NCBI GenBank assembly: GCA_045614365.1
Contig: JAZLCV010000050.1
Span: 1-53,115 of the forward strand
Direction of reading: 5' to 3'
DNA length: 53,115 bases
Source of the DNA: Eubacteriales bacterium
GTDB lineage: Bacteria; Bacillota; Clostridia; Oscillospirales; JAAYXM01
In this document: one piece after another, positions 188-21,219 of the stretch
How positions within the stretch are numbered: the stretch's first letter is position 1
Layout of the letters: each line of letters starts with the position of its first letter
Notes under the pieces: model-generated
What the model was told of the DNA's origin: nothing
Seen by the model: the letters and a program-made list of their open reading frames with translations, nothing else
The model's database searches: none
Position numbers and translations under genes: made by a program

Positions 188-1552
188 CTATTTTTCAAAT
201 AAAGTTTCAAATTTAGCAACCGGCATCGGACGCGAAAAATAATATCCCTGAAGCATATCACAACCGGCTTCAACGGCTGTCTTCCTATGCTCCTCGGTTT
301 CTATTCCTTCGCATAGTGCTTTACATCCCAGATCATGCGCGGTACGTATGATATTTTTCAGAATTAAAAATCCATTGGGGCTTGTTGCATTCTGCGTTAT
401 TGCCTTGTCAATTTTAACAATGCTGATATCAAAGTCCGACAAATCTCCAAAGCCGGTGTATCCCTTGCCGAAATCATCCAGAAGAATCAGAACACCTTTT
501 TCCTTCAGGCAAGCTAAATTCTTCACCATCATACTTTTTTCTTCATTATTAAGACTTTTATCCTCAAGGATTTCAACCGCAATGCACGAAGAATCGATGC
601 CGTATTTCTCAATGATTTTTATTATATTATCTGCAAATTGTTCATCACAAAGAGTGCTTCTTGAAAAGTTGATTGTATATACATATTTTGCGCGGCTTTC
701 TTTATCGCTGGATATCCATTTGCAATTTTTCTCAAAGATGTAATAATCGAATTTTCCATTCAGCCCTACGTTGCTTACTGCCGAAAGAAAAAAGTATGGT
801 GTAAGCACACCCTCGGTTGGAGAATTCAGACGCGACAGGACCTCCGCGCCTATAAGCTTATTGGTTCCTGCATCCATAATCGGCTGATATTCGAGAAAAA
901 ATCTGTTATTATCAATTTCATTCCGGATGCTGTTCTCAATTTTTATTTTTCTTTCAAACTCTTTTCCGTTTGAATTATCCCACTGACAATACAAAGTGCC
1001 TTTATCTTCAGCCATACTGCACGCCTGCTTTGCTCTTGCGAGTGCAGTCTTAAACGGTACATCGGTTGCGCTGGTGCAATGGTAACCGAAATTTGCACGT
1101 ACAACATTAACCGCACTGTGTTTTACGAAAGCTGCGTTGATTTCTTCAAAGCATCCTGCGATACACTTTTCCGTCGCTTCAGCTTCCCTGCTGCTTAGCA
1201 CAACAAAATTATCTTTACCGTAAATCGAAATTTCTCCGTCAGCAGCAATGCAGAAATGTTCAAATAAAATCCTTTTGATCTGCTCGTACATTCTTCCTGC
1301 TTTTGATTCGGAATACAGCCTCTTCACATTATCGAGTGATATTGAAATATATATAACACAACGATTTTTACGGTCACTTCCCGCTTTCTCAAAATCGCTT
1401 TCTATTTTACCTATACCGCAAAAGCTTTTTTCTGCCGTTCCCTTTGCCGTTTTTACGGATTTAACCGTAAAAAACAGACCTATCAGTCCCATCAGGAAAA
1501 AGATCATCACGAGAATAGTTATGATCACATATGGGTATTCAAAAATATGCAT
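188..1552 (-). CDS. Membrane-anchored c-di-GMP phosphodiesterase (TM, degenerate GGDEF, EAL)
   Basis: 454 aa with an N-terminal hydrophobic helix (VIITILVMIFFLMGLIGLFF). The full EAL signature set is present: YQPI..GAEVLSR (EVL variant), INFS, AVEILED, LDDFGKGYTG, VKIDK, CEGIETEE, LQGYYFSRP. Residues about 60-190 look GGDEF-like, but the motif is GKDNF. An AGGAG SD lies 9 nt before ATG 1552. Confidence 0.85.
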   Translation of the reverse strand: MHIFEYPYVIITILVMIFFLMGLIGLFFTVKSVKTAKGTAEKSFCGIGKIESDFEKAGSDRKNRCVIYISISLDNVKRLYSESKAGRMYEQIKRILFEHFCIAADGEISIYGKDNFVVLSSREAEATEKCIAGCFEEINAAFVKHSAVNVVRANFGYHCTSATDVPFKTALARAKQACSMAEDKGTLYCQWDNSNGKEFERKIKIENSIRNEIDNNRFFLEYQPIMDAGTNKLIGAEVLSRLNSPTEGVLTPYFFLSAVSNVGLNGKFDYYIFEKNCKWISSDKESRAKYVYTINFSRSTLCDEQFADNIIKIIEKYGIDSSCIAVEILEDKSLNNEEKSMMVKNLACLKEKGVLILLDDFGKGYTGFGDLSDFDISIVKIDKAITQNATSPNGFLILKNIIRTAHDLGCKALCEGIETEEHRKTAVEAGCDMLQGYYFSRPMPVAKFETLFEK

Positions 1553-1571: not shown

Positions 1572-2651
1572 CTATTTTTCAAAAATCGGAAATTCCCTTG
1601 TTCCGGCGGTCCGGCGAAGCCCTCTTTCCTTTGCAACCCGCATACATTTTTCAATATCTCTGCGTGCCGTTTTCTTTCGCCGTATGATTTCCTTTGCCAC
1701 AAAGAAAGGATTAAAAGTAAGCATTGCGCGAAAAACATCAGCCTTTGAAGCTCCGCATCTTTTATGCTCTGCCAGAATCTCAAAAAGGGCGTAGTTTATC
1801 GCATTCTTACCAAATTTTTTACCTGCCGCATTTTTAAGCCATCCGGCATAATTTATGAATTTATTTATATCCGCCTGCTCCTTAAAATAGATGCCTCTTA
1901 TATAAAATGCCTGCATCTCTTCATCCATCTTTTCACCAAGCTGTGACTCATAATATTTTTCCTGTATTCTGAGCACCTCTGTGTTCTGTCTATCACGCGT
2001 TGTGCTTGTAATTTGCTTATCATGAAGCCGGTATATCAGAAGACATTCGGGAAGAATTTTCATTTTCTGATTTGCCATCGCCATTCTCGTCCACAGCTCA
2101 AGGTCTTCCGTGCAGGTATGGGTCGGATCATAATTAAATTTTCTCATAACCTCAGACTTTGCAATAACGCCGGGATGCAGGATGGGATTGGCAACAAGAA
2201 GCATAGCGCGAAGTGCACCGAAATCGCACCGACCTCCGGCTCCTCCCGATGCATACACACCGTTCTTGACCGTCATAAACCGACAGGACGACAAAGAAAC
2301 GTCCGGGTTCTTCTCCATAAATTCATACTGTTTTTCAAGTCTTTCCGGAAGGCAGATATCATCTGCATCCATTCTTGCTATGTATTTGCCTTCGCACAGA
2401 GAAATTGCCTTATTAAGAGAAGACGGAAGCTTGAGATTCACCTCATTCGGATGGACCTTTATCCTGTCATCCTTTGCCGCTAAACCGGCAAGGATATCAC
2501 CTGTCGAATCGGTCGAGCAATCGTTTATAACAATAAGCTCCCAATTTTTGAAGGTCTGATTCCTTACGCTTTCTATTGCTTCCGCAAGATACTCTTCACC
2601 GTTATAAACACTCATAATTACTGATATATCCGGTTTCATAATCTGCGTCAC
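1572..2651 (-). CDS. Glycosyltransferase family 2
   Basis: Motifs: ISVIMSVYNGEEYL, VINDCSTDST, MDADD (DXD). The start is either GTG 2651 (GTGA overlap with the upstream stop) or ATG 2639. Confidence 0.85.
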   Translation of the reverse strand: MTQIMKPDISVIMSVYNGEEYLAEAIESVRNQTFKNWELIVINDCSTDSTGDILAGLAAKDDRIKVHPNEVNLKLPSSLNKAISLCEGKYIARMDADDICLPERLEKQYEFMEKNPDVSLSSCRFMTVKNGVYASGGAGGRCDFGALRAMLLVANPILHPGVIAKSEVMRKFNYDPTHTCTEDLELWTRMAMANQKMKILPECLLIYRLHDKQITSTTRDRQNTEVLRIQEKYYESQLGEKMDEEMQAFYIRGIYFKEQADINKFINYAGWLKNAAGKKFGKNAINYALFEILAEHKRCGASKADVFRAMLTFNPFFVAKEIIRRKKTARRDIEKCMRVAKERGLRRTAGTREFPIFEK

Positions 2652-3676
2652 CCTTTCCTGAGAACAGTTTTAATAATTTTGCACAGGTTTAGAAATCTGA
2701 ACGCCACTATGTATTGTTTTCTCTTCATAAGTGACACCGTTATCCTGCTTTTGGGCGAAATTTTTTCAAATTCTGCATTTGAAATCTTTTCACTGTGCAA
2801 AGAATTTATAATATTCGCTTTAAGCGTTTTTGCGCTTTTGAAATGATTTCCTTCGGCTGCCGCCGCAAGTATTGCAAAGCACATAAAGCACGAATACCTG
2901 CACATCTGTTCTTCAAAATCAACAACTTTCCTTATATCCGTCTTGTATATTTCATTTATGATATCTTCCACAAGATAAATCTGTCCTGCATTAAATCCCT
3001 TTGACATTGAACCTTCCCGCACAGTATACAAATACGCGGCTTTGCTGCTTATATATACGCTTTTTGCATCAAGGTAGCAAGGAACAACACAGCACAAATC
3101 TTCCCCCAGCGAGATTTTTTCATTCATATTAAGCTGATGCGGAACAATAATCTCCCGCTTTATTGCTTTGCCTGACAAATAATACGAAATATGGTTCATA
3201 TTTTTGTCCATCAGAAGTCTCGGATAAATATATTTTTCAATATCATTTTCCCCGTAGAAGCCTTCCTCAAGACCGTCGTTTGTGATGTTTACTGTTTTTC
3301 CGTTTTTCACCCATTTATACGAAAAAGATACGATTTCGCAATCCGTTTCTTTTATCCTGTTGTATGCATATTCAAGCGTGTCACGTTCAATAAGGTCATC
3401 AGAATCAAGGTTGAATATGTATTCTCCCTCTGCAATCTTTATACCGGAGCGCCTTGCAGCGGCAAGTCCGGCATTTTCTTTGTGAATAACCTTTATGCGG
3501 GAATCCTTTTTCTTGTAATCATCGCAAATCCCGGAGCAGACATCCTTTGAACCATCATCAACCAAAATAAGCTCGAAATCAGAAAAAGTCTGTCCGAGAA
3601 CACTCTCTACACAAGCGGGTAAATATTCCTCTACATTATAAACAGGCACTATTACAGAAAAAAACATATCCTTCAC
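2648..3676 (-). CDS. Glycosyltransferase family 2
   Basis: Motifs: FSVIVPVYNVEEYL, LVDDGSKD, LDSDD (DXD). The gene abuts its upstream neighbour with no gap. Confidence 0.85.
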   Translation of the reverse strand: MKDMFFSVIVPVYNVEEYLPACVESVLGQTFSDFELILVDDGSKDVCSGICDDYKKKDSRIKVIHKENAGLAAARRSGIKIAEGEYIFNLDSDDLIERDTLEYAYNRIKETDCEIVSFSYKWVKNGKTVNITNDGLEEGFYGENDIEKYIYPRLLMDKNMNHISYYLSGKAIKREIIVPHQLNMNEKISLGEDLCCVVPCYLDAKSVYISSKAAYLYTVREGSMSKGFNAGQIYLVEDIINEIYKTDIRKVVDFEEQMCRYSCFMCFAILAAAAEGNHFKSAKTLKANIINSLHSEKISNAEFEKISPKSRITVSLMKRKQYIVAFRFLNLCKIIKTVLRKG

Positions 3677-4792
3677 CTATCTGCTTTTTAATCCGACGAG
3701 CTTTTTTAGCCGGAAATACAGTCTGCTGCGCAGTCCCACAAGTATTTTTAACAGAAAATATAATCTGTATCTGATCCCGTAAGCGAATATTCTTTGCACA
3801 AAAGGTAATTTGCATATGGGATATGCCTTTAGAGCACTTACGGTAAGGCTGTGAGTGCACACTGTTTTGAGCCTCTTCCTTAACCGGCTGTACTTGATGC
3901 GGTTATCCTCTGCATACATTACCTCCTGCGAGCAGATAACCCTGCACATTGCCTGCCAGAATCTGTAGATATAAATCCTGTATTCTTCAGGCTTTGCCAT
4001 CCTGTCAAACCGTTCTTTGACCTTTTTTACAAACACAAGGCTTTTTTCAAATCTATCCTCTTTGTATCCTTTTGAAATAGACTCTCCGTTTCTACAGTAA
4101 TTGTAAAACGCATCGGCTGTTCCGGTAGCTTTTCGTATACAGGATATATAGTCTATCATAAACAGCGCATCTTCCGAAATTGTCTCTCTCTCGGACTCAA
4201 AAACAATATTGTTCTTTTTTATTATTTCGTGGCGGAACAAATTTTTCCAGATGCTCATCCCATATTTGCTGTCATCCTCATCCTCCGGCAATGCTCCGAC
4301 AATACCGAGCCCCAGCTCACGCAGTTCTTCTTCAGTCTCAAAATTAGTGTCCCCGGTAAAATATGTTTTGCGCTCACAGCCGCCGGCTTCACTGAACATA
4401 GTTCCGTCCACGGACAAAAATCCCGACATCACAAGATCTGAATTGTATTTTTCAGCTTTTTCATAAAGCGTTTTAAACATATCAGGTTCAACGAAATCGT
4501 CAGAATCAACAAATCCGATATATTCACCCGCGGCAATCTGCAGCCCTGCATTGCGCGCAAGTCCCGCGCCTTCATTCTGCTTGTGAATAACCTTTATGCG
4601 AAAATCCTCTGTTGCCATCCTATCGCACATCTGCGGAGATTCATCACGCGAGGAATCGTCCACAAGTATTATCTCAATATCGTCAAGAGTCTGGTTTTTA
4701 AGGGAATTCACGCATCTTTCAAGATACGCTTCTGCATTATATACAGGAACAATAACGCTTACCTTTGGCTGTGTCACGGTCTCACCTCGCAA
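3677..4792 (-). CDS. Glycosyltransferase family 2 with a duplicated basic amphipathic C-terminal tail
   Basis: Motifs: VSVIVPVYNAEAYL, LVDDSSRDES, VDSDD. The start is ambiguous: TTG 4792, or GTG 4777 preceded by AGGTGA. The C-terminus holds a tandem 14-aa repeat. Confidence 0.85.
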   Translation of the reverse strand: MRGETVTQPKVSVIVPVYNAEAYLERCVNSLKNQTLDDIEIILVDDSSRDESPQMCDRMATEDFRIKVIHKQNEGAGLARNAGLQIAAGEYIGFVDSDDFVEPDMFKTLYEKAEKYNSDLVMSGFLSVDGTMFSEAGGCERKTYFTGDTNFETEEELRELGLGIVGALPEDEDDSKYGMSIWKNLFRHEIIKKNNIVFESERETISEDALFMIDYISCIRKATGTADAFYNYCRNGESISKGYKEDRFEKSLVFVKKVKERFDRMAKPEEYRIYIYRFWQAMCRVICSQEVMYAEDNRIKYSRLRKRLKTVCTHSLTVSALKAYPICKLPFVQRIFAYGIRYRLYFLLKILVGLRSRLYFRLKKLVGLKSR

Positions 4793-5990
4793 CTAATTTC
4801 TCGTATTCCTTAATTAAAATATCACTGTACGCTTCAACGCTGAGAATGTTATCTTTTTCTTTTTTGCAATTTTCCCGAAGAGTTCCGTAGTACTCCCCGT
4901 TTTCAACGGTTTCCTTTATTTTTATCGCAATTGCTTCAGGAGTGGGAGTATTTACAAGCGTCCCCGTAACGCCGTCCTTTACAAGCTCTGCCATACCGCC
5001 GCTGTTCATCGTAATAACAGGAACACCCATACAATGCGCTTCAAGAATTGAAAGCGGGCAGTTTTCATAGCATACAGACGGCAAAATAAGAACTTTTGCG
5101 TTTTTCACAAGCTCCGTAAGCCTGTCACCCGTAAGAAATCCCGTAAGTTCAACATTCGGAATACCTTTCAGAACATCCTCGTCCGGGCCGTTTCCTGCGA
5201 CCTTGAAAATATATTCCGGCAAAAGGCGCGCCGTTTCTGCGATGTATCGGGTTCCTTTTTCTTCGGAAAGCCGCCCGACAAACACAATGTAGTTTTCTTC
5301 CTTCCGGTCTGATCCTTTAAAGCTTTCTTTGTTTATAAAGTTATGTACGGTTTTGGTTTTCCCTTTGTAATATTTTTTTGCCGCAAGAAGCTTTTTCTCA
5401 AGGAAATTGCTCGGACAAACAAACAAATCCACCTTTTTGTAAGTGCGCAACCATGAATAAAGCTTTGCCTCAACAACGCCCAAAACGCTTTTGACAACAG
5501 AACCGTGAATGCATTTGTTCTTGATACAGTTGATATGTGAGCCCCCAACGCACTTTTCACAAGGGCAATTTTTATCAAAGTTGTAAAGCAGGTGATTCGG
5601 GCAAATCATCTGATAGTCATGAACGGTCTGAACAAGCGGAACACCCTTTTTCTTAATTCCGTAAATTATAGATGGAGTAAGCTGAAAATTTATGTTGTTC
5701 ATATGAACTATATCCGGCTTGAAATCATCTATTACCTGCATAATTTTCTTTCTTGCCTCAAAGGAATATATTATTTTGAACGGATAGAGAAATCTTCCGA
5801 TTCCTTTCGAGTGAAAATCCATATTCTGCGTGTATTTTCCTGCAGAGTTTCCTACCGTGTTTTTCTCATCATACATTCCGAAATACTCAACATCATGTCC
5901 AATCTTCCGAAGATGTTCACCGAGGGACAGCATATAGCTTTCACTCCCCCCACGCGGGTACAGAAACTTATTTACCATCAGAATCCTCAT
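4782..5990 (-). CDS. Glycosyltransferase family 4 (GT-B)
   Basis: The N-terminus is MRILMVNKFLYPRGGSE. An E-x7-E motif (YENCPLSILEA) is followed by GVPVI. ATGA overlaps the upstream stop at 5987-5990. Confidence 0.85.
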   Translation of the reverse strand: MRILMVNKFLYPRGGSESYMLSLGEHLRKIGHDVEYFGMYDEKNTVGNSAGKYTQNMDFHSKGIGRFLYPFKIIYSFEARKKIMQVIDDFKPDIVHMNNINFQLTPSIIYGIKKKGVPLVQTVHDYQMICPNHLLYNFDKNCPCEKCVGGSHINCIKNKCIHGSVVKSVLGVVEAKLYSWLRTYKKVDLFVCPSNFLEKKLLAAKKYYKGKTKTVHNFINKESFKGSDRKEENYIVFVGRLSEEKGTRYIAETARLLPEYIFKVAGNGPDEDVLKGIPNVELTGFLTGDRLTELVKNAKVLILPSVCYENCPLSILEAHCMGVPVITMNSGGMAELVKDGVTGTLVNTPTPEAIAIKIKETVENGEYYGTLRENCKKEKDNILSVEAYSDILIKEYEKLVAR

Positions 5991-7291
5991 AACAACGAGT
6001 CACTTTCCTCTTCTCTGTTTTCTTCTGAAACATATCCAAACAACTTAAGCTCTTTGTTTCGCACATTTTCATCAAAGCTGTTTCCCATCATAAGCATTGC
6101 CAGAACGCCCGTAAGTAACGGATAGTTCATTGTATTGTCCGTTGAAGATACGATTATAAGGTATACGGTAAGCATAAACGTGATTATTGCATTTTCCACG
6201 TTACCGTGCCTTCCGAAATACCACACGCGAACCAGCGTCATCGAAACAAGCCATATAATATATCCCCAGAAGCCAAGATCAATGAAATGCTGGAGAAAAT
6301 CGTTATGAATCGAGGCAACGCCTATGTTCATAAATGTATTGAGCTGATATGTGAGAAACCCTATTCCGTTACCTGCAAAGCCCGGATCAAACTCATAAAA
6401 ATCATCTACGGCATTATAAATCCCGACACGGCCGCTCGTGTTTATTCCGGCTTTTTCCAGAAGCGCGAACGCATCTCCCTTTATAAGGGCAATATATCCT
6501 ATAAGAAGGAGAATTACGGCAACAGTAAACAGTGTAACAAGCCTGCTCGCTGTTTTTTTATTATAATGCGCAATGAATTTTAAAAGATATCCGAACATAA
6601 GCGCTATTACAATTGCGATAATTGCAATTCGTTTGAACGCCGACAGGAAACAGAAAACGCTTAAAATGAGCAAAATGAAATATACTGCATCCTTTCGTGG
6701 TTTAAAAAGCATATATATAAGATATGCACCAAGACAGAATGCAAGCTCGTGAATTTCTGCCTGAACAATAATATCTCCAGTTACATCTGCAAACGTAACT
6801 ACAAGAGTTACGAATTCCGAAAAGTAATTTCCTATGCCATTCTCTGCAATAACCGTAATAATCATAAGTATGTTGGCAATCAGAATGGCAAGAAGATTAT
6901 ACCATACACCGCGCTTGCCGAAGATATAAAGCATTGCTCCGGCTGCCAGCGCAAAGGACAGCATATTCATATATACAAATGAGCTTGAAAGTCCTCTTGA
7001 AATAACGCTGATATCCACCGTTTCCATAAACCATATAAACAGTGAAACCGCAGTGGTAACGGCAAGCGGAATACTGTAAATGCACGCCTCGCTAAAAGCC
7101 GTAAAACCTCTTGCAATATTAGGTTTGTACAAGAAAATCAGTGTTGCGGAAAAGAAGAGAACAAGGGCAAACGCGTGGCGGTATGTAACATGCAAGCCCA
7201 AATCAATGTATTCATTGAGAAAATAATACATCATCACCGCTATAACCATAAAGTAAAACGCTTTTGTTTTTTGGAGAAGCTTACCTTCCAC
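5987..7291 (-). CDS. Wzy-type polymerase / O-antigen-ligase-like polytopic membrane protein
   Basis: 434 aa, hydrophobic almost throughout with many predicted helices. It sits in a Wzx/PCP/GT context. GTG start with a GGGGGGA SD. The assignment rests on topology and context, not on a diagnostic motif. Confidence 0.6.
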   Translation of the reverse strand: MEGKLLQKTKAFYFMVIAVMMYYFLNEYIDLGLHVTYRHAFALVLFFSATLIFLYKPNIARGFTAFSEACIYSIPLAVTTAVSLFIWFMETVDISVISRGLSSSFVYMNMLSFALAAGAMLYIFGKRGVWYNLLAILIANILMIITVIAENGIGNYFSEFVTLVVTFADVTGDIIVQAEIHELAFCLGAYLIYMLFKPRKDAVYFILLILSVFCFLSAFKRIAIIAIVIALMFGYLLKFIAHYNKKTASRLVTLFTVAVILLLIGYIALIKGDAFALLEKAGINTSGRVGIYNAVDDFYEFDPGFAGNGIGFLTYQLNTFMNIGVASIHNDFLQHFIDLGFWGYIIWLVSMTLVRVWYFGRHGNVENAIITFMLTVYLIIVSSTDNTMNYPLLTGVLAMLMMGNSFDENVRNKELKLFGYVSEENREEESDSLL

Positions 7292-7324: not shown

Positions 7325-9190
7325 TTACAATAAGTCTTTTTCCTTCAAATCGGAAGTATAGCTTTTTTTGCTTCCGATTGCTTCGGAAAGCAGTTTTCTT
7401 GCCGTTTTATTCTCTTTGAAGGTCTCGGCAATACCGATCTTATACTCAATCACAACATCTCTGTGCTCTTCTCTTTCATCAAGACGAAGCCTGAAGAGTC
7501 TCATTATATCCTCAATCGTGATGTAATCCGATTCTTCCGTCAGCATAACAAAGCTGCCGTTGCCGTTATAAATATACTCGGTTTTTGATTTTCCGAAGGT
7601 TTCTTTTATGTAGGTTGTGAACATCTTTATAATTCCGTCGCCCACATCTCTTGAATACTCCGTGTTGATATGCACCAGATTGGATATATCAACCATGCAG
7701 TACACAACGCCGTCATCAAGAAGCTTTTTATCCTTAGCTTTTAAGTATTTATCAAGATATGCCCTGTTGCCATATCCGGTAAGATGATCTGTATAGAAAA
7801 TATAATTTATTATATCTCCCGCGCGACCTAACACAATTGCCCCTCCGCAGCAAACAACAACAAGGAAGAAAAATGCAATTGCCGTATACAAAGGCACATT
7901 AACACTTTCTCTTATAGAAGCCGAAGACAGTACCGAAATGTAGCTTGCACCCAAATACTTATTGTATTCGTCATTGGTTTCCATTGTTATACCGTAAAGT
8001 GAGGTCAGTTCCTCAAGAAGTGTGTTGATTTCACTCTCAACATTTTCTCTTATAGCGGCATATTGCGTGTTGCAAAGCTCTGTGCAGGTTTTTCCGGAAG
8101 CTTTACACTGCTCTCCGCAATTGCCGGTACAATTCGAGAAGGTATTTATAACATATGTGCAGTATGCGGAATCTATAATAGAGTGTTCACGGCTTTCTTT
8201 GTGGTCTCTCCAGCTGTAAATCAACTCATCATATGTTACGGTCTGATCACCTATGTACTCCTGCAGATTTCTTTCATGAAGATTATCAAGAATATACTCA
8301 TAAGAGATATTTGTATTTCCCGAATCTCTCATTTTTGTGACATACGCATCAATTACAGTTACAACATCCTCCACAATACTTGCATCCTTTGCATTGGAAA
8401 TGTTGTTATTGTCTATTCTTGTTGTATAATCTGAAATGAGAACTGATTTGTTTTTTGTTATCTGATACTTATAGATTTTTGAGAAAAGGGATGAAACCTT
8501 CACCTGCCTTAAATAGTTGAAATCATCGGCAAGCTCCGCAAACGACATTCCCGTCTCGGTTGATCTGTAATAATTGTTCTGCTCCATTCTTTGATACAAT
8601 GTATTGAGTGTATTCTCTATGCTTGCATCAATCAATTCCATCATCTCAATAAAATCGTAATCATTTTTATCAAGATTTTCAATAGTGTTGTTTGCGGGCG
8701 CAACATTTACATACTTTTGACTGAAGCGTTCAAAATAGACATCCAGTGTCTCATCGAGTATTGTTCTTGCAAAATCAGCGCCCTCTCCGCTTGTCGCTGC
8801 AAAAGAAACAATAAACGTGCTTGGTTCATATATATATTCTTCGCCCTCTTCAAGCTTTGCCTCTTTCTGCGCAACTTTGTCCTTATCCTCAATAGGAGTT
8901 ATATTTATTCTCGAAATAAGGCTGTCAACCGAATAGATTCCGGTAAGACCCATTTTGTCAACAACCTTCGACATTACTGCAGATGATTTTATTTCGTTTA
9001 CGTCAAGCTTATCACCCGTCGGCGCAAGACCTTTTTCCGCCTGTTCGTCATTGTAATGGATAACCTCTGACGCTATGTATGAATTCGATCTTGAAAGCTT
9101 GAAATAAACAGCATACGTAGCCACAAGACAAAAAACTATTATCAGCGGTAGAATTTTTTTTAAATATCTTAAAATCTGAAAACTTTTCAT
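7325..9190 (-). CDS. Polysaccharide co-polymerase (Wzz/PCP-like) fused to a C-terminal degenerate GGDEF domain
   Basis: 621 aa. There is a Wzz-like N-terminus (ILRYLKKILPLIIVFCLVATYAVYFKL..SYIASEVI; LDVNEIKSSAVMSKVVDKMGL). A coiled-coil-rich domain of about 400 aa follows, then a second TM (LYTAIAFFFLVVVCCGGAIVL). The cytoplasmic part shows DHLTGYGNRAYL ... VDISNLVHINTEYSRDVGDGI ... YNGNGSFVML. That is a GGDEF fold signature whose active-site motif is GNGSF. Confidence 0.7.
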   Translation of the reverse strand: MKSFQILRYLKKILPLIIVFCLVATYAVYFKLSRSNSYIASEVIHYNDEQAEKGLAPTGDKLDVNEIKSSAVMSKVVDKMGLTGIYSVDSLISRINITPIEDKDKVAQKEAKLEEGEEYIYEPSTFIVSFAATSGEGADFARTILDETLDVYFERFSQKYVNVAPANNTIENLDKNDYDFIEMMELIDASIENTLNTLYQRMEQNNYYRSTETGMSFAELADDFNYLRQVKVSSLFSKIYKYQITKNKSVLISDYTTRIDNNNISNAKDASIVEDVVTVIDAYVTKMRDSGNTNISYEYILDNLHERNLQEYIGDQTVTYDELIYSWRDHKESREHSIIDSAYCTYVINTFSNCTGNCGEQCKASGKTCTELCNTQYAAIRENVESEINTLLEELTSLYGITMETNDEYNKYLGASYISVLSSASIRESVNVPLYTAIAFFFLVVVCCGGAIVLGRAGDIINYIFYTDHLTGYGNRAYLDKYLKAKDKKLLDDGVVYCMVDISNLVHINTEYSRDVGDGIIKMFTTYIKETFGKSKTEYIYNGNGSFVMLTEESDYITIEDIMRLFRLRLDEREEHRDVVIEYKIGIAETFKENKTARKLLSEAIGSKKSYTSDLKEKDLL

Positions 9191-9211: not shown

Positions 9212-10567
9212 CTACGCCTTTTTGGGGAATTTCTTCGAAATGTGGTGCAGAATAAACGATACGTACGCAAATGCTGCAAAAATAATAAGTGTTTTCAACT
9301 CATTCATAAACGAAATGCCGTAGATCGTTACTGCGATGCACTGGTTCATTTTGTGGCTTGAATATTCCCTGCCCGCATTTATTGCTTCTTTTTCAAAGCC
9401 TTTAATACTGCTGTATATGGATTCAACAAGCGAATCCGCCGCCTTATATACACCGGCATCGGGCGTCTTTGCGGTAATCTTGTTTATCACAAGATTGTTG
9501 TCCATAATTTCTTTTTCGTTTGAAGCCACATAATTGCTGAAGTTCGTTGCCATGACGGACAGCTCGTCAACACCGACCTTTGTTCTTCCCATATAGTATT
9601 TGCCGGACTGATCCCATGTCGGCACGAGAACTATGCGGGTCATTTCCTCGCTGTACATATCAATTGCCTGATTACAAAGGTTATAAGAAGCGTTATTTTT
9701 CTGACGGTCGAAATCAACGTTTCTGTTCTGATACGTCAGTCTGTCTATATAGCCGTTCTTATCCCTGACCACACCGTGCTGAAGGATAAGCGACTTTAAA
9801 TTCTGATTGATCTGAGTTTCCTGAAACTGATAGATTTTACCCGCAATAGAATTGAAGGTACTGTTATTTCCAGTCACAAAGCTCGGGTTTTTCTCAGCCA
9901 TACCGTACAAGTAATTGGTAACTGCCTTCGCCTCTTTGTCAAGGAATGCCACTATATCCATATATTCCATTTTTGCAAAATCCGTTTTTTCTTGGGATAA
10001 ACTGAAATTATCCGTATATTTTTCTATGTAATACTCCTTGTATGCGGCAGTTATCAGCTTGATAACATTTTCCGAATCAAGATGGTCAGTCTCTTTCGAT
10101 GCATGATATTCCACCGCAAACTCCGTGGAAATATGGTACTCAGACTCATCTTCCACACTTCCCTGAACACACGGGTAAACGACAAGGCACTTTTTAAGTT
10201 CTTTCACCGTTACATCTTCAAGAGCACCTTTTCTGATAGCTCTGTCAACAACCTCATCACAGATGATTTCTGCCATATTGTATCTTGTTCCGTTGGAATT
10301 AAGAGCCTGCGATGCTTCGGAATAGTTAAGCGAAATAATTGCGTGAACAGACTTTTTAAGCTCAAAATGATTGAAAATCCCGTACACCATCGTCGTAACA
10401 AAACAAATGAGAATTATCCATGCATTGAAATACTCTGCCGTCTTGAATATCTGCGTTCTTTCTGCGTGATTTACATTTTTGGAACGAAAATATATCAGTA
10501 CTGCCGATACCAAAAACAATACACCGACAATTAAAATGATTAATTTTTGAAGTATTGCTGTAATCAT
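9212..10567 (-). CDS. PCP-like membrane protein of unknown function (two N-terminal helices and one C-terminal helix around a large soluble domain)
   Basis: 451 aa. Hydrophobic helices lie at the N-terminus (LIILIVGVLFLVSAVLIYF; WIILICFVTTMVYGIF) and at the extreme C-terminus (LIIFAAFAYVSFILHHI). The central domain loosely parallels that of the neighbouring PCP (HAIISLNY..., MAEIICDEVVDRAI). This is a by-eye similarity only. Confidence 0.4.
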   Translation of the reverse strand: MITAILQKLIILIVGVLFLVSAVLIYFRSKNVNHAERTQIFKTAEYFNAWIILICFVTTMVYGIFNHFELKKSVHAIISLNYSEASQALNSNGTRYNMAEIICDEVVDRAIRKGALEDVTVKELKKCLVVYPCVQGSVEDESEYHISTEFAVEYHASKETDHLDSENVIKLITAAYKEYYIEKYTDNFSLSQEKTDFAKMEYMDIVAFLDKEAKAVTNYLYGMAEKNPSFVTGNNSTFNSIAGKIYQFQETQINQNLKSLILQHGVVRDKNGYIDRLTYQNRNVDFDRQKNNASYNLCNQAIDMYSEEMTRIVLVPTWDQSGKYYMGRTKVGVDELSVMATNFSNYVASNEKEIMDNNLVINKITAKTPDAGVYKAADSLVESIYSSIKGFEKEAINAGREYSSHKMNQCIAVTIYGISFMNELKTLIIFAAFAYVSFILHHISKKFPKKA

Positions 10568-10587: not shown

Positions 10588-11820
10588 TCAGAATTTATTA
10601 ATATCGATTATGACCAGCTCCGGCTGATTATTTATACGAAGAACATTCAGGTTTTCAAGTCCTCCGCTTACAATCAAAGGTCTGCCTGCAACATCATATC
10701 TTCCGTAAACAAAGCTTCCTTTTCTTTCCGGTAGAATTCCGCCCTCATGCGTAAACAGAGGTCCGATCACCGGAATACGCATAAGCCCACCGTGAGTATG
10801 TCCGCAAACCATCAGATCCCCCCAGAACTCAGGTTCAAACTCCTCAAAAATAAACGGTTCGTGCACTGCAGTTATTTTAAGATTATCTGTATTTTCATAA
10901 AGATAATCCGTAAAAGCTTTTTCGGAATATGACCAGAAGGATGACGGATTTGAATTTAAAACACCATAAACATCAACCGTCATAGTTTTTACCGTTATCG
11001 TGTCCTTTTCATTTTTGAGAACTTTCATACCGGTTTCTTCAAGCTTTTTCTCAAAAGAATCGTTAATCTTCAAAAGTGCGGATTCATCGCGGTTATTTTC
11101 TTCAAATCCGAATTTCTTATCAAGATCTTTTTCAACAAACGAGAAACCATAGATACTGTCAACTTCATTGTTTCCATACACATAATATGACGGAGCAATT
11201 CCCGCAAGAGTTCTGCCTAAGTCTATCGCATACTCAGCATCATCCTTGGTTGAATCCACAATATCGCCCGTACAGATTATTACGTCGGGAGCCAAAGCTG
11301 CAACACGGGCGAGAAGCTTTTCGTTGTTTTTCCCGTAAGAAGTTCCGTGTAAATCAGATATCTGAACAACACGTACTGTGCTGTCAACCTTAAGGCTGCT
11401 CACGTTATAAAAAGTTTCCCGGAAATTCCGGTTACCGATATAATTACACATTACAACGATAACAGCTGTTGCAAAACAGACAAATATCATCCCGATAACA
11501 AAAAAATTTGCCGCCTTAACATTCTTTTTTAATTCCGGAGGCTGAGCTTTGCCCGTTTTCTTTTTTTCTATTCTTATGCTCTTTTTATATCCCAATATTG
11601 AATAAATACAAAGCGACAGCGGCTCTTTACATTCTTTTTTGAATTTTTTAATATTATCGGAGCCGTGATAAGTAACCAATACCCGATTTTCATCGGCATA
11701 CTCAATCTCAAACGTATCCGCCCATGTATTATAAAATTCAGCCGATACCAACTGCCTGAAAAACTCTTTAACTCTTTCTGAGCACATTTCCATCTCTTCG
11801 ATATTTGTCCTGTTCTCCAT
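10588..11820 (-). CDS. DnaA-domain-I-like N-terminal domain, TM, calcineurin-like metallophosphoesterase
   Basis: MPE motifs are present: VVQISDLHG, CTGDIVD, YGNNE, VCGHTHGG. One TM (FFVIGMIFVCFATAVIVVMC) is preceded by a Lys-rich stretch. The N-terminal 90 aa (VSAEFYNTW...RVLVTYHGSDNIKKFKKECKEPLSLCIYSILGYKKSIRI) resemble DnaA domain I. The start is set at ATG 11820 (TAAAGG SD); the ORF track extends to 11877. Confidence 0.75.
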   Translation of the reverse strand: MENRTNIEEMEMCSERVKEFFRQLVSAEFYNTWADTFEIEYADENRVLVTYHGSDNIKKFKKECKEPLSLCIYSILGYKKSIRIEKKKTGKAQPPELKKNVKAANFFVIGMIFVCFATAVIVVMCNYIGNRNFRETFYNVSSLKVDSTVRVVQISDLHGTSYGKNNEKLLARVAALAPDVIICTGDIVDSTKDDAEYAIDLGRTLAGIAPSYYVYGNNEVDSIYGFSFVEKDLDKKFGFEENNRDESALLKINDSFEKKLEETGMKVLKNEKDTITVKTMTVDVYGVLNSNPSSFWSYSEKAFTDYLYENTDNLKITAVHEPFIFEEFEPEFWGDLMVCGHTHGGLMRIPVIGPLFTHEGGILPERKGSFVYGRYDVAGRPLIVSGGLENLNVLRINNQPELVIIDINKF

Positions 11821-11839
11821 ATTAAATAAACCTTTACTT

Positions 11840-12958
11840 TTATTTTTCATAAAGCCGGCGCGTTGCCGCTGCAACATCCTGCCAGCTGTATTTGTTTAAA
11901 ATAAACTCATCCGCACCGTTCCTCAGTGCTTCTACCGCAGAGCGGTCATTACACAAAACCTGAAGCTTCTCTGCCAGGTCTTCAATGTTCCCTTTTTTAA
12001 AATACATTGCCTTATGCTCTGCCACCGACGTATTTTCGGGAATATCCGAGCACAAAAGCGCATTTCTGTATGCGAGCGATTCCAAAAGACAAAGGGACAT
12101 GCCTTCAAGGTCTGACGGAAGTACCGTTATATAAGCATTTGAATATATCTCATCCAAAGCTTTTCCCGATATGAAACCCGTAAAAATGATATCGGGGTTA
12201 TCACCGGCTTTTTCTTTAAGCATTCTCACGTAATCATCGGTATCACTTGTATCTCCTGCAATAACAAGCTTTTTATCTGTTTTGATTTTGCTGTATGCAT
12301 CAATGAGGTAGTGAACTCCCTTTTCGGCAGTCAGCCTTGATACAAGACATATATACTCATCTTTCCTAAGGCCGTATTTTTCCGTAATAATTTCCGCGTT
12401 GCGGTTTTCCGGGCGGCTTATTCCGTTGTGGATAATCACAGTTTCGCGATTGTACGTTTCCTTGAAATAATCATGTGCCGCCTGACTTAATACAATGACT
12501 TCATCTGCATATTTTGCAAGAACTTTTTCGCCGAATTTTATATATTTTGACGCAAAGCCCTTTCCCCATTTTTCTCTCTGCCAATCAAGGCCGTGAACCG
12601 TAGCCACACATTTCTTGCCGAAAAGCTTCGGAATCCACAAAGCCGCACACGGCCCCTCTGCATGAAAATGGATAACATCATAATCTTTAAACGATGCCGC
12701 TATCGCCGCGGTGAAGGATGCTATCATTGCGGCAAATCCACGGATATTAAGCGTCCATGCGTTTTTGATTTTTACGCCCTTGTACATCCCGTTCTTCACG
12801 GTTCCCACATATTCGTTTTCAACCTTATCCGAAGAACGGTTATAACACGTGACATCAAGCCCCATTTCAACCAATATCGGGCATAGCGTTGTGAGAACAT
12901 TTTCTATCCCGCCGCGGCGCGAGGGAACAACCTTGTGCCCAATCATAGCAACTTTCAT
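11840..12958 (-). CDS. Glycosyltransferase family 4 with a DUF1972-type N-terminus (WchF/RgpA-like second-sugar transferase type)
   Basis: N-terminus MKVAMIGHKVVPSRRGGIENVL. E-x7-E motif (LEGMSLCLLES). The start is set at ATG 12958, 8 nt after GGAG. The track start at 12967 is a GTG overlapping the SD. Confidence 0.8.
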   Translation of the reverse strand: MKVAMIGHKVVPSRRGGIENVLTTLCPILVEMGLDVTCYNRSSDKVENEYVGTVKNGMYKGVKIKNAWTLNIRGFAAMIASFTAAIAASFKDYDVIHFHAEGPCAALWIPKLFGKKCVATVHGLDWQREKWGKGFASKYIKFGEKVLAKYADEVIVLSQAAHDYFKETYNRETVIIHNGISRPENRNAEIITEKYGLRKDEYICLVSRLTAEKGVHYLIDAYSKIKTDKKLVIAGDTSDTDDYVRMLKEKAGDNPDIIFTGFISGKALDEIYSNAYITVLPSDLEGMSLCLLESLAYRNALLCSDIPENTSVAEHKAMYFKKGNIEDLAEKLQVLCNDRSAVEALRNGADEFILNKYSWQDVAAATRRLYEK

Positions 12959-12978
12959 TTTATTCACTCCAAATCCGA

Positions 12979-13659
12979 TTACCTGCCGGTAGCCGTAAGC
13001 ATAACTATCGGCGTTTTAAGCATTATCTTCAAGTCATTGCGATATGTTCTTGTCTGTATGTATTCTATATCCATTTCTACCCACTGTTCAAACGGAATAT
13101 CATTCCTGTTTTTTGAAATCTGCCACGTGCAAGTTATGCCGGGCGTAACAAGAAGCCTCAGTTTCTGATAATCCGTATAGAACTCTACCTCTCTCGGAAG
13201 AGGCGGTCTCGGCCCGACAAGTGTCATATCTCCCTTTAGAACATTGAAAAACTGCATAAGCTCGTCAAGAGAAACTTTTCTTAAAAATTTCCCGACTCTC
13301 GTTATACGTGGGTCCTCCTTCATTTTGAACACCGGACCGTCCATTTCATTCTGCTTTGCCAGCTGCTCAATCATCTTATCTGCATTGGCACGCATAGTAC
13401 GGAATTTATACATATAAAATTCTTTTCCGTGCCGCCCCACTCTTATCTGTTTGTAAAACGGTCCTGCACTCCTGTCGTCAATCACTATTACAATAGAAAT
13501 CAAAATCATAAGCGGCAGGAAAAACAACAAAATCAATGTTGCAAAAAAGATGTCGAAAAGCCTTTTCTTTTTCCAGTATGAAGCATATGATTTTTCGATG
13601 ATTGCTTCCAGCTTTTCTCTTGTTTTCGCGTCTACCTTTTCTTGCTCGATGTATGGCAT
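12979..13659 (-). CDS. Small (monotopic-type) undecaprenyl-phosphate sugar phosphotransferase, the priming enzyme
   Basis: Bacterial sugar transferase signature: KRLFDIFFATLILLFFLPLMILISIVIVI, YKFRTM, LVGPRPPLPRE. Confidence 0.9.
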   Translation of the reverse strand: MPYIEQEKVDAKTREKLEAIIEKSYASYWKKKRLFDIFFATLILLFFLPLMILISIVIVIDDRSAGPFYKQIRVGRHGKEFYMYKFRTMRANADKMIEQLAKQNEMDGPVFKMKEDPRITRVGKFLRKVSLDELMQFFNVLKGDMTLVGPRPPLPREVEFYTDYQKLRLLVTPGITCTWQISKNRNDIPFEQWVEMDIEYIQTRTYRNDLKIMLKTPIVMLTATGR

Positions 13660-14525
13660 TACAGCACACTTCTTTCTGACATTTTCATTACAGAATCAAA
13701 TTCTGTTTTTCTGTTTTCTGATATATAAAATTTTTTGAACACTACATTTTTATCTTTAAGCCCGGAGCCGTTTTTATCTGTATACCCCGGATGGAACAAC
13801 ACTTCTATATCTCTCTTTTTCTTTTCCGCCGCTCTGATATACCCGGGCAGAATTTTGCTTACCCTTTTTTCATCCATTTTTCCCGAAAAAAGAATTCCGA
13901 AAAATTGCGCTGTTGGTATTTTTCGTTTCTTTGCCTGCTTTTTGTTGAACAGCCATAAGAAATTTAAAAGCCATTGTTTGATAACATTTACCGTACTGTA
14001 TGTAAAATAAAGCGACGGCATTTTTATGTAAGGGAAAATCGGCTCTGCCGGAATTCTTACGTATTCGGGATTGATTTTTTCATCATCCATAACCTTAATC
14101 AACACCCTGAACACAGCGGGAATCATATGTGTATGCTGATGGCTGTCAATGCAAAACGGAGCATCACCGGAAAGCTTTTCTTTCCAGAATGAAATCTGCG
14201 CTTTGATTTCTTTATAAACCTGCTCTTCAAATTTTTTTCTGCGGAAGAAGCTTTGCATCATCAGCCCGGTAAAAGTATGCCTCAGTTTTCCTGTCTTATC
14301 TGCAATAAGCGGAATTTTCTGTGCATTTGCCATACACTTTCCTTCAACAAGGTTGAGATGCAAAGAAACGCGGATATCCTTCCCGTTACGTATTTTCTGC
14401 AGATCCACCTCATCAAAATTCGGAAATACGCTGACCTTATTCAGCGCACCTTTATCAATGCACTGCTGTATATGACCGGAAATTTCTTCACACAGCCCGT
14501 AATCATCTGCACAAAAATATATCAC
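13659..14525 (-). CDS. YdjC/ChbG/HpnK-family carbohydrate deacetylase
   Basis: Motifs: FCADDYGL, HLNLVEG, DSHQHTHM, FHPGY. Its stop overlaps the start of the priming transferase by 1 nt (TAATG). Confidence 0.75.
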   Translation of the reverse strand: MIYFCADDYGLCEEISGHIQQCIDKGALNKVSVFPNFDEVDLQKIRNGKDIRVSLHLNLVEGKCMANAQKIPLIADKTGKLRHTFTGLMMQSFFRRKKFEEQVYKEIKAQISFWKEKLSGDAPFCIDSHQHTHMIPAVFRVLIKVMDDEKINPEYVRIPAEPIFPYIKMPSLYFTYSTVNVIKQWLLNFLWLFNKKQAKKRKIPTAQFFGILFSGKMDEKRVSKILPGYIRAAEKKKRDIEVLFHPGYTDKNGSGLKDKNVVFKKFYISENRKTEFDSVMKMSERSVL

Positions 14526-16093
14526 CTGTACTCACCTTCCGGTCCAAGCTTTATGACTATTGTACCGTCCACTGCCGCCACGCTGTCCTTCGCCGGCCAT
14601 TCCCCCATAGACTGAACCTTCTCGTTTTGCGCAAGCATTCTTTTTTCTTCTCCTGCCAAAAACTCGTAATCCATTTCGCAATAGTCGTGCAATGCACTGC
14701 TAAGCACACTCTGGGCTACCTTTTCATCGTCTGCCCGAAGTATATATCCATCCGTTACTCCGGTAATGTCCGGCGGCAAGTTGGAGCTATAGCGCTCGCT
14801 GTTTTCAAGAGCACCAAGCACAAGAATTTTTTTGCAATCCTCTGCGCCGTCGGTCTGTTCTATACGGTCTGCTATACGCACCAGAACGCCGTAGGATTTT
14901 TCGTATGCAATTTGCGCCTTATGGTAGCTTACATTCGATATAACAATCTGATTTGCTATTATTAACAGTGCTGCCGTAAGCACTGCCCAGCGTTTTATAC
15001 ATATATGCTTTTCGTTTTCGTCCGTTCCTCGTTCATAAAGCACGAGGAAAAAAATATAAAAAACAGAGTATCCCATCAACATAAGATTGTGATAGTCAGC
15101 CGACGGATTTATAAAAGCCAGTGCACCCGCACCAAATACAAGTGCGACGCCTGTTGCAATAACGGCAAAAAGCTCAATGGGTTTTCTGTAAATCTTATTC
15201 TTTACTATATACTTAATATAATAGAAAAACGTAAACAACAAAACAAAAACATTCAGAATAACATATATGCTTATTCCCTTTGAAAAATCAAAAAAGCAAC
15301 TGATAAATGTTTCCTTGATTACATAAAGAGAACTGACTAAATCTACGTTTGACAACGATACCGTCGAATTGATTCCCTGATAATCAAGCAGCTCTGCGGA
15401 AGAAACAGCGAGAATTGCTTTGAGTATGATGCTGTAAAGTATCATACCCGAGATCCCCGCAAGAAGCATACACACGCTTTTTTTCAGAAGGATAAAAAAT
15501 TCTGTGCGCCGGTAAATTATCTGATCGATCAACCAAAGAAGAATCAGCATGATCGTAACGGTTATGTACGCCTGATAAACGCCCACCGACAGCGCGATAA
15601 GCACCACGGAAATAATATATCCGCCTTTTCCTTTGATCATATACAGCGCCGCAAGCGTTGAAAGAAAGAATGCGATACTATAACCGTCTGCCACATAGTT
15701 ATACATCATAACAGATGTAACCGTAGGGAAAGAAACAATTATTGCACCTATTAAAAACGCAGTAATTTTTTCACGGATATTAAGTATCCTGCAGATACAC
15801 ACAGCCCCAAGTGCATGGAACAGAACCGCTATGATTCCGTTTAAAAACGGCAGATCGTAAAAAGAGCTGATGGAACACACAACGGGCAAAAACCATCGTC
15901 CGAGACCAACCATATTCTGCGGATCGTATCTGAACACCAGCGAATCCCAATTCGGAAGCCAGTTTGTTATCTTATACAGATGTGCAATCATCCCAACCGC
16001 AATAGCTGCAAAAAAGCAAACCTTCCATTCCGGCAAAATATATGCATTAAGTTTTTTCAATACCTTTTCAGGCAATATTACCACTCCAACCAT
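14522..16093 (-). CDS. GtrII-like polytopic glycosyltransferase (putative GT-C fold) with a C-terminal extracytoplasmic domain
   Basis: 523 aa with about 10 N-terminal helices and a soluble C-terminal third. The N-terminal pattern AHLYKITNWLPNWDSLVFRYDPQNMVGLGRWFLP recalls the Glucos_trans_II family. It co-occurs in the operon with GtrA and a GtrB-like GT2. Confidence 0.55.
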   Translation of the reverse strand: MVGVVILPEKVLKKLNAYILPEWKVCFFAAIAVGMIAHLYKITNWLPNWDSLVFRYDPQNMVGLGRWFLPVVCSISSFYDLPFLNGIIAVLFHALGAVCICRILNIREKITAFLIGAIIVSFPTVTSVMMYNYVADGYSIAFFLSTLAALYMIKGKGGYIISVVLIALSVGVYQAYITVTIMLILLWLIDQIIYRRTEFFILLKKSVCMLLAGISGMILYSIILKAILAVSSAELLDYQGINSTVSLSNVDLVSSLYVIKETFISCFFDFSKGISIYVILNVFVLLFTFFYYIKYIVKNKIYRKPIELFAVIATGVALVFGAGALAFINPSADYHNLMLMGYSVFYIFFLVLYERGTDENEKHICIKRWAVLTAALLIIANQIVISNVSYHKAQIAYEKSYGVLVRIADRIEQTDGAEDCKKILVLGALENSERYSSNLPPDITGVTDGYILRADDEKVAQSVLSSALHDYCEMDYEFLAGEEKRMLAQNEKVQSMGEWPAKDSVAAVDGTIVIKLGPEGEYR

Positions 16094-18314: not shown

Positions 18315-18354
18315 CTTGCCACCTCCCGCTCTGAAGTAAATAAAGTCTGTCACC

Positions 18355-18786
18355 TTATTTTTCTTTTGACTCAAGAAAAATTTTCCTTGTTGTGAAGTTA
18401 TAAACCGGCACAATTACCATTGCGAAGATTTTCACTATCAGGTAATATACCGACGTAAACTTAACCCCAAGCCATAAAATCAGCTGATTTAAACCCAAAC
18501 CACCAATGCTTAGCAATACAAAAATTATAAATTCGTAAACCTTGCTTTGCTTTTTGCTTTTAAAAACAAATGCCATACTTAAGAGATAGTTCACCGTGAC
18601 GGAAGCACAAAAGGAAATTGCGGATGAAAGAAGAATCTCCATATGCAAAAGCTCTTTTAATACAACAAGAACTCCCACATCCACAACGGCGGCTATAACG
18701 CCAACTATTGCAAACTTAATCAGTTGCATTGTCAATTTGTGATTTCCCCCGTTCACCGTAAACTTTATTCCTTGGCAAAAACCCAA
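18355..18786 (-). CDS. GtrA-family small membrane protein
   Basis: About 140 aa with 4 helices and the signature LIKFAIVGVIAAVVDVGVLVVL. The start is TTG 18786 (AGGAGA SD, overlapping the DGC 3' end) or ATG 18729. Confidence 0.8.
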   Translation of the reverse strand: MGFCQGIKFTVNGGNHKLTMQLIKFAIVGVIAAVVDVGVLVVLKELLHMEILLSSAISFCASVTVNYLLSMAFVFKSKKQSKVYEFIIFVLLSIGGLGLNQLILWLGVKFTSVYYLIVKIFAMVIVPVYNFTTRKIFLESKEK

Positions 18787-21200: not shown

Positions 21201-21219
21201 CATTCCAGAGTACTAATAC

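Follow-up and report, generated by a model that had tools for sequence, protein, structure and literature searches.

What controls a polysaccharide co-polymerase (PCP) of the Wzx/Wzy type when the cytoplasmic position that in Wzc is held by a tyrosine kinase carries a degenerate GGDEF domain? The question is posed by a gene for a 621-residue protein (hereafter the PCP-GGDEF protein) in a glycan locus of Eubacteriales bacterium (JAAYXM01), on contig JAZLCV010000050.1 of assembly GCA_045614365.1, of which we analysed 53,115 nt of the forward strand (the window). Wzx/Wzy pathways make most capsules and O-antigens and many exopolysaccharides, and in PCP-2a proteins such as Wzc the cytoplasmic position in question bears a bacterial tyrosine kinase (BY-kinase). 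Direct control by cyclic di-GMP (c-di-GMP) is textbook knowledge only for synthase-type systems, namely those for cellulose, alginate, Pel and poly-N-acetylglucosamine. How Wzx/Wzy pathways are switched after translation, other than by tyrosine phosphorylation, is poorly understood, c-di-GMP control being known for synthase pathways (PMC12802240, 2025), and local modules made up of a cyclase, a phosphodiesterase and an effector are well established (PMC8669469). We searched the literature for a PCP or Wzz protein fused to a GGDEF or EAL domain, and for any action of c-di-GMP on a Wzy co-polymerase, and came upon neither; GGDEF protein and PCP were encountered only as separate genes. We infer, with moderate confidence, that Wzx/Wzy polymerisation in this organism is under c-di-GMP-linked control, exerted through the dead GGDEF domain.

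The two halves of the protein

A first-pass annotation, made from the DNA sequence alone, had described residues 1–455 as having PCP topology and a Wzz-like N-terminal pattern. The topology stands. Hydropathy places transmembrane (TM) helices at residues c. 12–30 and 437–455, and a full-length AlphaFold2 (AF2) model, based on an input of 68 diverse relatives, shows helices at 6–35 and 432–466, so that two TM helices enclose an outer domain of c. 400 residues, with both termini cytoplasmic and the N-terminus positively charged. The start of the open reading frame (ORF) has been called correctly, because the N-terminus, MKSFQILRYLKK, agrees with the family consensus MKxFxIxRYxKK, in which F4 and Y9 are at least 90% conserved family-wide. 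The Wzz-like pattern, on the other hand, could be seen only by way of relatives and structure, and not in the protein itself.

An exhaustive search with residues 1–460 yielded 645 clusters at 50% identity. Among 113 relatives, the Pfam Wzz model (PF02706) matched 29 at E≤0.01 (15 of 68 that bear a GGDEF domain, 14 of 45 others), always on the N-terminus and first TM helix, at about residues 3–64. A single one of the 113, P0191, scored above the gathering threshold (29.4 bits vs. 25.5), and it aligns with the N-terminal module of the PCP-GGDEF protein from end to end (E=9e-43); since the latter has no Pfam Wzz match of its own, its membership of the Wzz family rests on transitive homology, with P0191 as the bridge. 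Matches of the N-module family to NCBIfam models were single and too weak to be of use (TIGR01005 and TIGR01006, the latter in one of 36 relatives).

The N-module was also modelled alone (AF2; predicted local distance difference test score, pLDDT, 86), because Foldseek matches to the full-length model were swamped by GGDEF domains. The model comprises the first TM helix, an α/β base, long helical hairpins, return strands and the second TM helix (TM2); in the outer domain the base occupies residues c. 36–135 and the hairpins 138–417, and β-strands at 418–428 rejoin the base, which is the most constrained region of the protein (ratio of nonsynonymous to synonymous polymorphism, pN/pS, 0.046). 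When the Protein Data Bank (PDB) was searched with this model, the ten best matches were all to Wzc (E 1e-5 to 3e-3, with a Foldseek probability of 1.0 for those at 1e-5 to 4e-4), followed by WzzE (probability 0.98) and KpsE (0.95). At its outermost end the helical hairpin bears a Cys-rich loop, modelled with low confidence; in distant relatives the corresponding position is taken by long inserts, acidic or rich in Pro.

Could the protein, then, be no co-polymerase at all, and simply a decayed sensor cyclase with a PCP-like helical outer domain and no role in polymerisation? Several results tell against a PCP. No Wzz, GNVR or CpsC model of Pfam or NCBIfam matched the N-module even at E≤10; its TM-scores to Wzc were low (0.24–0.28 in Foldseek); and a family profile run against all PDB sequences found neither Wzz nor Wzc, its matches to PI3K p85 and keratin being rejected as spurious coiled-coil noise. 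Likewise, the proline-rich motif that is a feature of PCPs ahead of TM2 was not found, the lone P433 there being unconserved in the family consensus; TM2 keeps a G-x-x-x-x-x-G-R pattern instead (GCxGAIxLGR). Helices as long and flexible as these would be expected to give low TM-scores, and we therefore base the fold call on ranking and probabilities. With Wzz detectable in so many relatives and one of them over threshold, with Wzc and then two further PCPs heading the structural matches, with a gene invariably beside that of Wzy and within glycan clusters, and with purifying selection too strong for decay, we regard a sensor cyclase without any part in polymerisation as very improbable. Judged from homology and the predicted structure, residues 1–460 are a divergent polysaccharide co-polymerase of the Wzz/PCP superfamily, belonging to a Wzx/Wzy-type pathway.

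The last 155 or so residues (nt 7328–7795) had been read as a GGDEF fold, and both the hidden Markov model (HMM) searches and the structure prediction on the 621-residue protein upheld this. Pfam GGDEF matched residues 466–604 (E=3.2e-11; 43.7 bits vs. a gathering score of 23.8), TIGR00254 scored 37.7 against a cut-off of 37.4, the cyclases DgcR and PleD were matched in the PDB (E 1e-6 to 7e-4), and in Foldseek the AF2 model fitted isolated GGDEF domains with target-normalised TM-scores of 0.70–0.76 and root-mean-square deviations of 2.5–3.5 Å. When residues were mapped one by one through the PleD alignment, the metal-binding D327 of PleD corresponded to D501, the guanine contacts N335 and D344 to N509 and D518, and H340, the His of 'GH', to R514, 'GH' reading S513–R514. 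At the position of the catalytic hairpin GGEEF stands NGNGS(F), and that of the RxxD inhibitory site (I-site) reads either GKSK or KSKT, depending on a one-residue shift in the alignment, with no R..D either way; the first-pass annotation had read these motifs in the same way, and its coordinates for NGNGSF (7550–7567, residues 542–547) are exact. The phosphate-binding K442 and R446 have no conserved counterpart, the aligned T612 and K616 lying in a poorly conserved tail of low pLDDT. With the acidic residues of GG(D/E)EF, the second metal ligand and the phosphate-binding K/R all missing, the domain is, on its sequence, incapable of making c-di-GMP. 'Diguanylate cyclase', the only name borne by the family's public records, is a wrong label for this protein, because the catalytic motif and the phosphate-binding residues have been lost.

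Has the domain merely been left to decay? In an alignment of 68 GGDEF-bearing relatives (22–48% identical), the hairpin has the consensus Y-N-G-x-G-Q-F, with N542 kept in 63 of them; R598 is found in 60, D518 and R514 in 54 each, and N509 in 49. Of these, N542, R514 and R598 are family-specific conserved residues. D501 is not conserved (R, Q, N or K may take its place), the I-site columns are gaps in 46–51 of the 68, and neither RxxD nor an alternative RxxD nearby occurs in the protein or across these relatives. In 70 species-level orthologs, YNGNGSF, D501, N509, R514, D518 and R598 are all invariant, and the pN/pS of the domain (0.128) equals that of the ectodomain. The idea of a decaying pseudo-domain is ruled out by this low ratio and the fixed motif, and the pattern of substitution indicates a domain that is at work, is under purifying selection and has acquired a new surface of conserved residues.

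What might such a surface do? If it bound no nucleotide, the domain could be a submembrane oligomerisation or docking module that holds the PCP ring together, much as the ring of kinases does in Wzc, or tethers partners. Nucleotide-independent roles are known for the degenerate GGDEF domains of LapD, CsrD and GdpS, and the missing I-site, the lost catalytic acids and phosphate-binding K/R, and the failure of the wider family to conserve the metal-binding D501 are all in keeping with this; less so is the retention of the guanine contacts N509 and D518 in 72–79% of the diverse members and in all orthologs, and the conserved R514 and R598 suggest contacts with phosphate. Alternatively, the remnant of the active site could sense GTP, pGpG or (p)ppGpp, so that polymer synthesis would follow the nucleotide or energy status of the cell instead of c-di-GMP. 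GTP-binding degenerate GGDEF domains exist, as in Caulobacter PdeA; structures of PleD with (p)ppGpp (9g85 and 9g86) were among the Foldseek matches; and all three equivalents of PleD D327, N335 and D344 are invariant in the clade of the PCP-GGDEF protein. Such sensing is harder to reconcile with the disappearance of the second metal ligand and of the K/R that would hold the GTP phosphates, and with the variability of D501 in the family at large. Evidence of another kind bearing on both ideas, and on c-di-GMP, comes from the genes around the protein and from its relatives.

The glycan locus and its relatives

Read along the minus strand, the locus encodes a cyclase, a probable flippase, a DXD sugar transferase with GtrII and YdjC proteins, the priming enzyme, a GT4 glycosyltransferase, a metallophosphoesterase, a short PCP paralog, the PCP-GGDEF protein, a Wzy-like polymerase, one GT4 and three GT2 glycosyltransferases and an EAL phosphodiesterase (Table 1). 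It is thus bracketed by two c-di-GMP enzymes with intact motifs. The short PCP and the metallophosphoesterase had both been overlooked in the first-pass annotation.

How constant is this company? Orthologs of the PCP-GGDEF protein were found in at least 172 species-level genomes, all of uncultured Clostridia, from the guts of goats, sheep, buffalo, deer and humans. In 80 species-level loci the 16 genes are collinear as far as the contigs reach, as is every gene from flippase to EAL within the stretch taken, and across these loci the PCP-GGDEF protein is the second most conserved, behind the priming enzyme. The short PCP is present in 76 of the 80 loci, and the EAL phosphodiesterase stands at the end of 66, nearly all of those that reach that far. 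The cyclase lies just beyond the flank taken for the 80 loci: in L059, L086 and L087 a dCache-GGDEF cyclase is linked to the locus, and in L023 it has shifted (19259–21550) from upstream of the flippase gene to downstream of the EAL gene, still linked.

The wider family of 645 clusters belongs entirely to the Clostridia. The architecture is not rare; the family, though uncharacterised, is large. Relatives with only 25–40% identity retain a core of four genes, for Wzy, the short PCP, the long PCP and the metallophosphoesterase. A Wzy_C gene adjoins that of the long PCP in every related locus, and a short PCP paralog was recognised by HMM directly upstream of it in five of five distant loci, other distant loci having at that position a gene for c. 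430–550 residues without a Pfam match. This suggests that the tandem PCP pair is an obligatory two-subunit co-polymerase. Around the distant cores are genes for Polysacc_synt flippases (as in L089 and L095), a pyruvyl transferase, glycosyltransferases and Bac_transf proteins.

Some relatives depart from the standard domain plan. In P0216 (L091, 10001–12754) the PCP-GGDEF protein is joined via a third TM helix to the phosphoesterase; because that helix separates them, the GGDEF domain would be cytoplasmic and the phosphoesterase extracellular. In P0255 and P0261 (L094, 10001–12295; L089, 4960–7179) an EAL domain replaces the GGDEF domain in the identical gene slot. P0261 keeps nearly all the catalytic EAL motifs, and its cluster includes WP_216424180.1, from Acetivibrio sp. 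MSJd-27, a cultured organism, where it goes by no other name than 'EAL domain-containing protein'. In L095 (3822–6080) a single gene combines a GT4 glycosyltransferase with an HD_5/HD domain of the HD-GYP type, directly upstream of a core made up of phosphoesterase, short PCP, PCP-GGDEF, Wzy and Wzx.

These exchanges bear on the alternatives raised above. Scaffolding alone hardly explains why GGDEF and EAL should alternate in one slot, and a nucleotide-free module, though a serious possibility, seems to us rather unlikely. The EAL variants, together with the cyclase and phosphodiesterase of the locus, point specifically to c-di-GMP, which makes a sensor of GTP, pGpG or (p)ppGpp less likely again. 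The c-di-GMP-linked control that we favour draws on four independent features: the locus lies between a cyclase and an EAL phosphodiesterase, both intact, which stay linked to it even where the cyclase has moved; c-di-GMP is what the two domains that alternate in the slot have in common; another sublineage has placed an HD-GYP-type fusion at the head of the core; and the locus offers no other obvious control, as neither a BY-kinase nor a c-di-GMP riboswitch is present in it. The second-messenger link suggested by the first-pass annotation is strengthened by the conserved bracketing enzymes and by the PCP-EAL variants. Its proposal that a kinase had been replaced by a domain of nucleotide-messenger type holds in so far as the locus has no BY-kinase; 'replaced' is an analogy, and not a demonstrated evolutionary event.

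Table 1. Features of the PCP-GGDEF gene and of the glycan locus (positions in the window)
Feature	Position	Strand	Evidence or remarks
PCP-GGDEF gene	7325..9190	−	ORF, ATG start, 621 aa; Pfam GGDEF; mean AF2 pLDDT 88.2; 70–95% identical orthologs in 80 species-level loci
Residues 1–35: short, positively charged cytoplasmic N-terminus and first TM helix	9086..9190	−	Hydropathy; helix 6–35; region matched by Pfam Wzz in relatives
Residues 36–431: extracytoplasmic PCP domain	7898..9085	−	AF2 models; Foldseek best matches Wzc, WzzE, KpsE
Residues 344–373: Cys-rich loop	8072..8161	−	C344, C354, C358, C362 and C369 invariant in close orthologs
Residues 432–466: TM2, running as an unbroken helix into the GGDEF domain	7793..7897	−	AF2 helix 432–466; conservation
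Residues 467–606: cytoplasmic degenerate GGDEF domain	7373..7792	−	Pfam 466–604; Foldseek; PleD mapping; pN/pS 0.128
NGNGSF (residues 542–547) at position of catalytic GG(D/E)EF hairpin	7550..7567	−	DgcR and PleD alignments; fixed in 70 orthologs; family consensus YNGxGQF
EAL phosphodiesterase, TM-anchored	188..1552	−	Pfam EAL E=2e-57; motifs EVL, DDFGKGY, KID, EGIE, QGY intact
Four glycosyltransferases (three GT2, one GT4)	1572..5990	−	Pfam
Wzy-like polymerase, 434 aa, multi-TM	5987..7291	−	Pfam Wzy_C E=1e-6, 29.1 bits, just below gathering score 31.7
Short PCP paralog, 451 aa, TM–ectodomain–TM, no cytoplasmic domain	9212..10567	−	21% identity to PCP-GGDEF protein over 366 aa, E=3e-5; topology
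Membrane-anchored calcineurin-type metallophosphoesterase	10588..11877	−	Pfam Metallophos; TM 125–143; likeness to YaeI and LpxG
GT4 glycosyltransferase (DUF1972-type)	11840..12967	−	Pfam
Priming phosphoglycosyl transferase (Bac_transf)	12979..13659	−	Pfam E=7e-65; most conserved gene of locus
YdjC-like deacetylase, GtrII membrane glucosyltransferase, DXD sugar transferase	13659..16812	−	Pfam
Multi-TM protein, 534 aa as listed, probable divergent Wzx-type flippase	16809..18413	−	c. 12–14 hydrophobic segments
dCache-GGDEF diguanylate cyclase	18765..21077	−	Pfam; sequence; GGDEF motif intact (RMGGDEF)
Cyclase residues 626–770: 145-aa C-terminal extension	18768..19202	−	No Pfam match

The 534-residue multi-TM protein had no match in Pfam or NCBIfam, and BLASTP aligned it in register, but only weakly (E=0.005), with a Polysacc_synt flippase. 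We take it to be, in all probability, a Wzx that has diverged very far; the true start probably lies downstream of the TTG listed for it. The catalytic domain of the metallophosphoesterase is probably outside the cell. No LCP ligase gene was found in the locus, and one may speculate that the phosphoesterase releases or processes polymer linked to undecaprenyl diphosphate. No gene for an outer-membrane Wza/OPX partner was seen in the locus, and no BY-kinase is encoded in its 21 kb or among the other window genes checked. A search of the window for c-di-GMP riboswitches, or for any Rfam family, found none, and a promoter scan was uninformative (46 matches, as against 52.9 in shuffled sequence). 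From about residue 53 onwards, the EAL phosphodiesterase can be aligned with the GGDEF part of NCBIfam GGDEF-EAL models, although Pfam finds no GGDEF there; it probably carries a second, more eroded GGDEF remnant of the locus. The glycan locus (c. 1–22000) has a G+C content of 0.38–0.42, compared with 0.44–0.49 in the rest of the window (22000–53115), which contains an ordinary division and cell wall (dcw) cluster, with genes for a penicillin-binding protein, MurE, MurF, MraY, FtsW, MurG, MurA, FtsQ and FtsZ at 27–39 kb.

How c-di-GMP might reach the co-polymerase

The arrangement that we envisage is as follows. The PCP-GGDEF protein, its GGDEF-less paralog (with which it would probably form a mixed oligomer), Wzy and the putatively extracellular metallophosphoesterase would constitute a fixed module, with the dead GGDEF domain as its cytoplasmic control element, in the position held by the BY-kinase in Wzc. 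Polymerisation or chain length would be coupled to a pool of c-di-GMP set by the dCache-GGDEF cyclase and the EAL phosphodiesterase of the locus, the coupling being achieved either through a non-canonical binding site for c-di-GMP, one other than RxxD, or through docking of the cyclase or the phosphodiesterase. From the GGDEF domain the signal may be relayed through the rigid, unbroken TM2 helix, in which, with its linker, G455–R456, Y463 and Y466 are conserved. That the GGDEF domain gates polymerisation in this way is our inference.

Two observations sit uneasily with this scheme. The RxxD I-site, missing from the protein and its family, is the very site used by all the well-studied degenerate-GGDEF receptors (PelD, BcsE), and because it is absent, direct binding of c-di-GMP would need a new site; this is the chief argument against simple binding in the manner of PelD. 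Moreover, not all the distant loci, L082 for example, have a cyclase or phosphodiesterase nearby. In its boldest form, the scheme would make this the first Wzx/Wzy co-polymerase that itself senses c-di-GMP, with a mixed ring of long and short PCPs switched by the nucleotide, a remodelled and metal-free former active site (N509, R514, D518, N542 and R598) as the sensor, the local cyclase to supply c-di-GMP and the local phosphodiesterase to remove it, and tyrosine-kinase control wholly replaced in many gut Clostridia; we offer this only tentatively, and think it doubtful as it stands.

Might information flow the other way? A rigid helix joining a TM segment to a GGDEF domain is typical of the signalling helices of sensor cyclases, and both of the c-di-GMP enzymes that the locus encodes, cyclase and phosphodiesterase, are membrane proteins. 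The PCP ectodomain might report on the state of the polymer or of Wzy, and the dead GGDEF domain might then modulate its neighbours, for example by forming unproductive GGDEF heterodimers, so that assembly would feed back on c-di-GMP levels. In P0261, with nearly all of its EAL catalytic motifs retained, the ectodomain could regulate an enzyme. Many distant loci have a PCP-GGDEF core without a cyclase or phosphodiesterase close by on which to act, and we consider outside-in signalling improbable; it is compatible with c-di-GMP-linked control of polymerisation, and does not exclude it.

Known systems and wider significance

Of the systems already described, Wzc (a PCP-2a protein; Escherichia coli K30, structures 7NHR and 9R62) is among the closest to the PCP-GGDEF protein: no structure matched the N-module better, Wzc too acts together with Wzy in a Wzx/Wzy pathway, and it has the same succession of first TM helix, outer α/β base with helical hairpins, TM2 and C-terminal cytoplasmic regulatory domain. 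In Wzc, however, that domain is a BY-kinase (Walker A/A'/B) with a Tyr cluster, where here it is a dead GGDEF fold; the PCP-GGDEF protein is clostridial, is paired with a paralog lacking the domain and with a metallophosphoesterase, and has no sequence similarity to Wzc that HMMER can detect. CpsC/CpsD and CapA/CapB (PCP-2b) resemble it in being bitopic, cytoplasm-controlled co-polymerases of Wzy-dependent pathways in Firmicutes. PCP-2b proteins have a small outer domain (c. 230 residues in total) and a separate kinase gene, in contrast to the outer domain of c. 400 residues and the kinase-free locus described here.

Among degenerate GGDEF proteins, PelD of Pseudomonas aeruginosa is similarly located in the inner membrane and exerts post-translational control over a polysaccharide machine. 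It binds dimeric c-di-GMP at RxxD and R402 (PMC8461298), a type of site that the PCP-GGDEF protein lacks. PelD also differs in having four TM helices and a GAF domain, and in serving a synthase-dependent pathway without a PCP. LapD, a structural match (6PWK), likewise has a dead GGDEF domain on a TM signalling helix between cytoplasm and outer domain, but there the EAL domain is what binds c-di-GMP, and the output is control of a protease rather than of a glycan polymerase. Listeria PssE and Bacillus subtilis YdaK are I-site receptors with TM anchors only, in synthase-type systems with neither a PCP ectodomain nor Wzy. Both are membrane proteins of Firmicutes in which the GGDEF domain is degenerate, and their genes share exopolysaccharide operons with those of c-di-GMP enzymes (PMC4125290, PMC5422440). 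A co-polymerase that itself senses c-di-GMP is known from alginate synthesis, in the form of Alg44, which does so by a PilZ domain (PMC8461298). Its folds (PilZ and an MFP-like domain) are unrelated to those of the PCP-GGDEF protein, and its pathway is synthase-dependent, in a Gram-negative host.

PCPs and degenerate GGDEF domains are thus each familiar; their combination is a new and abundant architecture, with what is plausibly a new regulatory logic. The family places a c-di-GMP-type domain exactly where the kinase sits in a co-polymerase, and a single soluble domain and a few point mutants would suffice to make the question testable, with the PCP-EAL variant WP_216424180.1 of Acetivibrio sp. 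MSJd-27 providing a cultured point of entry. It also brings to light a tandem PCP pair and a putatively extracellular LpxG/YaeI-like phosphoesterase tied to Wzy, and it does so in an abundant family of the gut Clostridia; in the gut, surface glycans shape interactions with both host and phage.

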